Positions 41,740 to 42,675 of a stretch of DNA of 64,000 bases are shown one piece after another (positions within the stretch are counted from its first letter, which is position 1; each line of letters opens with the position of its first letter). This DNA comes from Escherichia coli O127:H6 str. E2348/69 (GTDB taxonomy: Bacteria; Pseudomonadota; Gammaproteobacteria; Enterobacterales; Enterobacteriaceae), in assembly GCF_000026545.1 (NCBI RefSeq), contig NC_011601.1. The stretch is one strand, 5' to 3'. A program made the position numbers and the translations under genes. The notes under the pieces were generated by a model, which worked only from the letters and a program-made list of their open reading frames with translations, was not told where the DNA came from and made no database searches.

Positions 41740-42675
41740 ATGAAAATGAATAAAAGTCTCATCGCTCTCTGTTTATCAGCAGGGTTGCTGGCAAGCGCAC
41801 CTGGAATCAGTCTTGCCGATGTTAACTACGTACCGCAAAACACCAGCGACGCGCCAGCCATTCCATCTGCCGCGCTGCAACAACTCACCTGGACACCGGT
41901 CGATCAATCTAAAACCCAGACTACTCAACTGTCGACCGGCGGCCAACAACTGAATGTCCCTGGCATCAGTGGTCCGGTTGCTGCGTACAGCGTCCCGGCA
42001 AACATTGGTGAACTGACACTGACGCTGACCAGCGAAGTGAACAAACAAACCAGCGTATTTGCGCCGAACGTGCTGATTTTTGATCAGAACATGACCCCAT
42101 CAGCCTTCTTCCCCAGCAGTTATTTCACCTACCAGGAACCCGGCGTGATGAGTGCAGATCGGCTGGAAGGCGTTATGCGCCTGACACCGGCGTTGGGGCA
42201 GCAAAAACTTTATGTTCTGGTCTTTACCACGGAAAAAGATCTCCAGCAGACGACTCAACTGCTCGATCCGGCTAAAGCCTATGCCAAAGGCGTCGGTAAC
42301 TCGATCCCGGATATTCCCGATCCGGTTGCTCGTCATACCACCGATGGCTTACTGAAACTGAAAGTGAAAACGAACTCCAGCTCCAGCGTGTTGGTAGGAC
42401 CACTATTTGGTTCTTCCGCTCCAGCTCCGGTTACGGTAGGCAACACGGCGGCACCAGCTGTGGCGGCACCAGCTGTGGCTGCACCCGCTCCGGCACCGGT
42501 GAAGAAAAGCGAGCCGATGCTCAACGACACGGAAAGTTATTTTAATACCGCGATCAAAAACGCTGTCGCGAAAGGTGATGTTGATAAGGCGTTAAAACTG
42601 CTTGATGAAGCTGAACGCCTGGGGTCGACATCTGCCCGTTCCACCTTTATCAGCAGTGTAAAAGGCAAGGGGTAA
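41740..42675 (+). CDS. malM: Maltose-operon periplasmic protein MalM
   Basis: Start MKMNKSLIALCLSAGLLASAPGISLA (signal peptide); SD gaggtg upstream; contains an in-frame 15-bp tandem duplication (APAVA x2). Confidence 0.85.
   Translation: MKMNKSLIALCLSAGLLASAPGISLADVNYVPQNTSDAPAIPSAALQQLTWTPVDQSKTQTTQLSTGGQQLNVPGISGPVAAYSVPANIGELTLTLTSEVNKQTSVFAPNVLIFDQNMTPSAFFPSSYFTYQEPGVMSADRLEGVMRLTPALGQQKLYVLVFTTEKDLQQTTQLLDPAKAYAKGVGNSIPDIPDPVARHTTDGLLKLKVKTNSSSSVLVGPLFGSSAPAPVTVGNTAAPAVAAPAVAAPAPAPVKKSEPMLNDTESYFNTAIKNAVAKGDVDKALKLLDEAERLGSTSARSTFISSVKGKG

Follow-up and report, generated by a model that had tools for sequence, protein, structure and literature searches.

In Escherichia coli EPEC E2348/69, the malM gene carries a 15-bp tandem duplication, which preserves the reading frame and adds five residues to an Ala/Pro-rich segment predicted to link two folded domains of the encoded protein. 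The two-copy form is a rare allele, private to the E2348/69 lineage, and we regard it, with a probability of about 0.85, as a lineage-specific, derived tandem duplication of the slippage type that is most likely neutral or nearly so. It most likely represents a textbook in-frame indel in a tolerant linker, real but ordinary and without consequence. In the following, the window is the whole 64-kb stretch of DNA analysed, and positions refer to it unless another record is named; the coordinates of all features are collected in table 1.

The tandem repeat in malM

The gene had been assigned to malM in the initial annotation, and several lines of evidence bear this out. Its product matches the Pfam family PF07148 (maltose operon periplasmic protein) with 172.6 bits against a gathering cut-off of 26 (E = 4.3e-51), over profile positions 2-134 of 134, and is identical to WP_001339384.1, annotated in RefSeq as 'maltose operon protein MalM' of E2348/69; furthermore, the RefSeq gene order on the plus strand is malK, lamB, malM and then ubiC, malM being the last gene of the malK-lamB-malM operon, of which the lamB-malM spacer is interrupted by the insertion sequence ISEc13 in E2348/69. 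A 12.9-kb stretch centred on malM is base-for-base equal to that of E. coli EPEC E2348/69 (NZ_CP059840.2). The N-terminus of the protein, MKMNKSLIALCLSAGLLASAPGISLA, has low pLDDT values in the AlphaFold2 model and looks, from its sequence, like a Sec signal peptide. The periplasmic location of MalM is taken from the literature, and a 2024 paper still gives its function as unknown, in keeping with the earlier description.

Table 1. Features of the malM region and length alleles of malM. Positions are those of the window unless another record (L number) is given.
Feature	Position	Strand	Description	Basis or occurrence
lamB-malM spacer	39951-40124 and 41674-41739; L004:2088-2500; L005:2259-2500			
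9-bp target duplication CTGATTATC	40116-40124 and 41674-41682			boundaries set by comparison with IS-free L007
ISEc13 (IS4 family)	40125-41673	-		RefSeq annotation; Pfam Tnp_DNA_bind, DDE_Tnp_1, Dimer_Tnp_Tn5
ISEc13 transposase	40135-41508	-		
Terminator-like hairpin inside ISEc13 (example)	40743-40761	+		
malM CDS	41740-42675	+	311 aa including signal peptide (306 aa in most E. coli)	ORF list, Pfam, RefSeq
L114F	42079		codon 114, TTT vs CTT	
Predicted inter-domain linker SSSSVLVGPLFGSSAPAPVTVGNTAAPAVAAPAVAAPAPAPVKKSE	42376-42513	+	residues 213-258; pLDDT 46-67, no secondary structure	AlphaFold2
15-bp unit, copy 1, GGCGGCACCAGCTGT	42447-42461	+	AAPAV in codon register 42448-42462	absent from AREA_486 and K-12 J53 alleles (alignment)
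15-bp unit, copy 2	42462-42476	+	identical to copy 1	direct reading, TRF
Degenerate unit B, GGCTGCACCCGCTCC	42477-42491	+	11/15 identical to unit A; encodes AAPAP	
Interval malM-ubiC	42676-42853		about 180 bp	
-15 allele	L006:1501-1538 (E. coli GPEC1185)		301 aa; unit B deleted; boundary repeat GGC	6 complete genomes
+27 allele	L009:1501-2448		315 aa (P0016); tandem duplication; boundary CGGCACC, 7 bp	one draft assembly
+48 allele	L010:1501-2469		322 aa (P0017); tandem duplication; boundary GCTCCGGT, 8 bp	one draft assembly
Frameshifted SopA-family gene	L005:3422-5452		between malM and ubiC	K-12 J53

Direct reading of malM finds the 15-bp unit GGCGGCACCAGCTGT (unit A) twice, head-to-tail, and an exact period-15 match of 18 bases extends the perfectly periodic stretch to 33 bases (42447-42479). 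The corresponding TRF call (42447-42489, period 15, 2.9 copies, score 72) is the only tandem repeat with a score of at least 50 within the 64-kb window. Period-15 runs of at least 18 matches are expected about 1e-6 times by chance in 64 kb, and exact tandem duplications with a period of 10-60 occurred at a mean of 0.08 per shuffle in 200 dinucleotide shuffles, against exactly one in the real window. In codons, the repeat reads GCG GCA CCA GCT GTG twice, that is AAPAV at residues 237-241 and again at 242-246. The in-frame 15-bp duplication originally described as APAVA x2 is the same event in another register, and is confirmed. The finer details needed some revision: the 15-mer given for it, gcaccagctgtggcg, does lie at 42451-42465, its register being shifted by four bases, but the final base of the second copy (42466-42480) is t where the first has g, so that GCG becomes GCT without a change of residue; similarly, the interval 42452-42490 does contain the repeat, but begins one base late (the true start is 42451) and with its end at 42490 already covers part of the degenerate third unit. 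When E2348/69 malM is aligned with other E. coli malM genes the insertion is a clean 15 bases, and the newer of the two GGCGGCACCAGCTGT copies cannot be told from the older.

By inspection, the sole palindrome inside the unit is CAGCTG (6 bp), and no hairpin able to explain slippage was seen in it. On the minus strand of each copy, GCTGGTGc (42452-42459 and 42467-42474) agrees with the Chi sequence GCTGGTGG in seven of eight bases, which is probably a coincidence of Ala/Pro codons.

Distribution, other length alleles and proposed origin

The malM gene was found in 5,412 of 5,426 complete E. coli genomes, and it spans 921 bases in every full-query match among the evenly spaced matches listed, compared with 936 in E2348/69. 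Homologues do not all carry two copies, as they would if the repeat were simply the ancestral sequence: an exact match to a 31-base probe specific to the one-copy junction is present in 5,325 of the 5,426 genomes, and a 36-base probe, able to match only junctions of at least two copies, matched three. These three records, effectively one strain, are E2348/69 itself, 'E2348/69 variety 2' and a construct engineered from the latter. A 70-nt one-copy probe, run in sensitive mode, gave at least 95% identity in 5,407/5,412 genomes; two of the 5,412 show a low identity (<95%) over this linker probe and may, at a guess, be cryptic-clade Escherichia with a divergent linker of the 312-aa type. Every phylogroup sampled (K-12, O157:H7 and B2 strains) has a single copy, and the nearest one-copy allele, that of AREA_486 (phylogroup B2 type), differs from malM of E2348/69 by four SNPs. 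The duplication is therefore derived rather than ancestral, because the one-copy junction is near-universal in E. coli and MalM of E. albertii also has the one-copy form; the event is, moreover, recent, because the two copies are identical.

The two-copy allele is not restricted to one laboratory stock, because the exact 311-aa MalM occurs on 79 contigs of a collection of 15 billion proteins, in which the two common 306-aa alleles are each found on at least 1,000 contigs. It is identical in the three complete E2348/69-derived assemblies, one of them a laboratory construct, and in two draft assemblies (L007 and L008).

That the copy number of the 15-mer should be compared across strains had been proposed at the outset, and the comparison gives -15, +15, +27 and +48 alleles beside the predominant one-copy form. 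No three-copy allele was found among the 5,426 complete genomes with the two-copy probe, which would also detect one and of which the three matching records each span 936 bases. The -15 allele, carried by the human O99:H6 strain CU42ET-1 and by five chicken GPEC isolates, and present on 93 contigs of the large collection, arose independently of the E2348/69 duplication. The +27 and +48 alleles were each seen in a single draft assembly; junction probes for them matched none of the complete genomes, and an assembly error is conceivable for both. All four changes are multiples of three, so the reading frame is kept. Some 9 to 11 of the 5,412 complete genomes (0.2%) have a linker of another length, reflecting few independent events; the site is length-polymorphic, as had been claimed, in that the -15, +27 and +48 alleles fall in the same linker, but such alleles are rare, so that the linker is a hotspot for occasional indels and neither hypervariable nor a switching locus.

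The description of the site as slippage-prone is upheld by the boundaries of the length alleles, since direct repeats of 3-8 bp bound each of the -15, +27 and +48 changes. The one-copy sequence itself reads ...ACAC GGCGGCACCAGCTGT GGCTGCACCCGCTCC GGCACCGGTG..., with successive 15-bp units starting with GGCgGCACC, GGCtGCACC and GGCACC. At the boundaries of the +15 event, in the unduplicated sequence, GGC is the exact repeat, and GGCgGCACC and GGCtGCACC, 15 bp apart, agree in eight of nine positions. Thus, a degenerate 15-bp periodicity was already present in the ancestral one-copy gene, where it probably goes back to earlier duplications of a like kind (AAPAV, AAPAP), and the MalM linker itself looks assembled from older copies of the unit.

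Slippage of the Streisinger type generates tandem duplications and deletions through slipped-strand mispairing or microhomology-mediated events. We infer from the sequence that it was the mutational mechanism here, and the following course may be proposed. Within the GC-rich run of Ala/Pro codons, the start of unit B, GGCtGCACC, would be the likely mispairing partner of GGCgGCACC; the nascent strand would slip back by one period, re-pair and copy GGCGGCACCAGCTGT again. All this would take a single event of slipped-strand mispairing, or a comparable misalignment at microhomology while the DNA was being replicated or repaired. The product would be a MalM with five more residues (AAPAV) in the unstructured linker between the beta-sandwich and the C-terminal three-helix domain, and the allele would then have been kept by descent in the EPEC E2348/69 clone. 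The exact head-to-tail copies, the short direct repeats flanking the single-copy ancestor, the reciprocal deletion of the neighbouring unit in other strains and the larger nearby duplications bounded by 7-8 bp repeats are all features that malM shares with known cases of slipped-strand mispairing. Nothing in malM is unusual by comparison, except that the exact microhomology is short: 3 bp at the +15 boundaries (8/9 with one mismatch), which is weak by itself and counts against slippage. Unequal recombination or a repair-associated duplication would give the same product, and the sequence cannot separate these from slippage. With that proviso, malM shows cleanly how slippage can lengthen and shorten low-complexity Ala/Pro linkers.

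Among the aligned close relatives, the sole indel outside the linker is a 2-residue deletion in the repetitive ELTLTLT motif of E. albertii MalM (P0032, alignment A1 columns 92-93); this motif is likely to be a slippage site itself.

Linker tolerance, ISEc13 and the question of selection

The AlphaFold2 model of MalM, built on 91 family members (mean pLDDT 84.7), comprises a beta-sandwich domain at about residues 30-212 (pLDDT >93) and a C-terminal three-helix domain at residues 262-308 (pLDDT 94-97). The segment between them is predicted to be an unstructured linker, in the middle of which the duplicated residues 237-246 sit; the prediction agrees with the initial proposal that the repeat lengthens an Ala/Pro-rich linker. 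In MalM of Escherichia, Citrobacter and Salmonella, essentially all length differences are confined to the stretch between GNTAAPA and KKSEPML, with hardly any variation in the flanking domains. Across the 91 family members the inter-domain segment spans 14-81 residues (median 37) and has no conserved sequence; by the same measure it has 46 residues in E2348/69 and 41 without the duplication. The five-residue extension is, therefore, well inside the tolerance of the family, and, as there is little constraint on how long the linker is or on its sequence, we infer that the allele is most likely neutral or nearly so, even if a functional effect of linker length is formally conceivable.

Flexible Ala/Pro-rich inter-domain linkers are familiar from the lipoyl-domain linkers of the E. 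coli pyruvate dehydrogenase E2 chain and from the OmpA hinge. The MalM segment resembles them in being of low complexity (A/P/V), in its predicted lack of structure, in its place between folded domains and in its freely varying length and sequence, but differs from them in that MalM has no known domain function or linker-length requirement.

Linker length might, nevertheless, be tuned by selection, for example to span a periplasmic distance between the partners of the two domains, the +5 allele having been selected in the EPEC1 clone. The clustering of recurrent in-frame length changes in the linker, the fixation of the allele in the E2348/69 clone, with its approximately 79 contigs, and the longer linkers of other genera than E. 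coli (proteins of 313-317 aa) could all be read in this way. However, repeats together with relaxed constraint would produce the clustering just as readily; each variant is rare (0.06-0.11% of complete genomes); the alleles do not converge on one length, changes of -5, +5, +9 and +16 residues all being seen; the family tolerates linkers of 14-81 residues without conserved sequence; and no function or partner of MalM is known. We judge such tuning unlikely. A more specific version appears very unlikely: the linker would act as a functional ruler, the beta-sandwich and the three-helix domain would bind different envelope partners, such as LamB at the outer membrane and a peptidoglycan or inner-membrane component, and the recurrent length changes of 5-16 residues in E. 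coli lineages, that of the EPEC allele among them, would have been selected. If true, it would provide a first handle on the function of MalM; otherwise, the duplication says nothing new on that function, except that a linker longer or shorter by five residues persists in natural lineages.

Another possible source of tolerance is ISEc13, which lies in the spacer between lamB and malM, 66 bp ahead of the malM start. Its ends are (C)TGTCTCTTGATCAGATCT and CTGTCTCTTATACACAAAT, which resemble the ends of IS50, and its insertion junction was detected by a junction probe only in the three E2348/69 records among the 5,426 genomes. If a polar insertion had already silenced malM, the duplication could have been tolerated under relaxed selection. 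Indeed, ISEc13 parts malM from lamB and from the malK promoter in E2348/69, contains terminator-like hairpins on the plus strand and, to judge from its position, may uncouple malM from that promoter. The same allele also carries a private substitution, L114F, in a beta-strand of the conserved domain, whereas Leu occupies position 114 in all 20 other aligned MalM sequences of Escherichia, Citrobacter and Salmonella; this substitution hints that malM of the E2348/69 lineage may be outside the typical constraint. The remaining three differences from the nearest allele are synonymous. The draft assembly L007, however, argues for the opposite order of events. It encodes the identical 311-aa MalM, including F114, but lacks ISEc13: its lamB-malM spacer of 231 bp is uninterrupted and the 9-bp target occurs once, in a background nearly identical to that of E2348/69 (0 differences in 3,769 bases and one in 4,936). 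The duplication thus predates the ISEc13 insertion, because an IS-free genome already carries the two-copy allele; to regard L007 instead as a precise excision revertant is improbable for elements of the IS4 family. Relaxed selection following the ISEc13 insertion, a highly improbable account at best, is rejected on these grounds.

Simple-sequence repeats also form contingency loci, which switch surface proteins in Haemophilus or Neisseria. Like these, and like coding VNTRs, malM encodes an envelope protein, has a tandem repeat inside its coding sequence and occurs in more than one length within the species, and one might suppose that its copy number shifts at high frequency and modulates MalM. 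However, malM has only two exact copies of a 15-bp unit, and the changes are always in frame, without frameshift or altered promoter spacing and, hence, without an on/off switch. The allele is also invariant among the derivatives of one strain and its closest relatives (E2348/69, 'variety 2', the engineered derivative, L007 and L008). Of the complete genomes, at least 98% share the identical one-copy junction and none was found with a three-copy allele. Phase variation is, in our judgement, scarcely credible. Finally, two ancestral copies with loss in the other E. coli, for which the -15 allele shows at least that losses do occur and which is otherwise a bare possibility, or an assembly or sequencing artefact, can be dismissed as extremely improbable in view of the single copy in all sampled phylogroups and in E. 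albertii, of the 100% identity of the two copies, which implies a recent event, and of the recovery of the allele in several assemblies made independently, at different centres and with different technologies.

The derived, slippage-type duplication in a tolerant linker is, then, the reading that we prefer. In practical terms, the 15-bp insertion could make the E2348/69 (EPEC1 O127:H6) clone easy to recognise by PCR or from its sequence, and the ISEc13 insertion upstream could mark the E2348/69 sub-lineage inside that clone.

Structural comparisons and the neighbourhood of malM

A search by sequence for a solved homologue of MalM gave no meaningful match in the PDB, the best (E = 0.025) being designed PPR repeats over the C-terminal helices. 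Foldseek comparison of the AlphaFold2 model with the PDB returned weak, generic beta-sandwich matches, namely collagenase PPC/collagen-binding domains, GOLD and CUB, with query-normalised TM-scores of about 0.2-0.26; complexes of lambda gpJ with LamB were also returned (probability 0.66, rmsd about 21 Å), a very weak similarity that we regard as noise. Literature searches combining malM with E2348, or ISEc13 with E2348, found nothing relevant, the matches to 'malm' looking like author names.

The spacer between lamB and malM varies in length when free of the insertion sequence, being 231 bp in L007, 242 bp in J53 and 413 bp in AREA_486. It holds REP-like palindromes (GCCGGATAAGGCG...GCATCCGGC), and the differences in length probably correspond to differing numbers of REP units. 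On the other side of the gene, K-12 J53 has a frameshifted gene of the SopA family between malM and ubiC, which is absent from E2348/69, where ubiC follows closely after malM.
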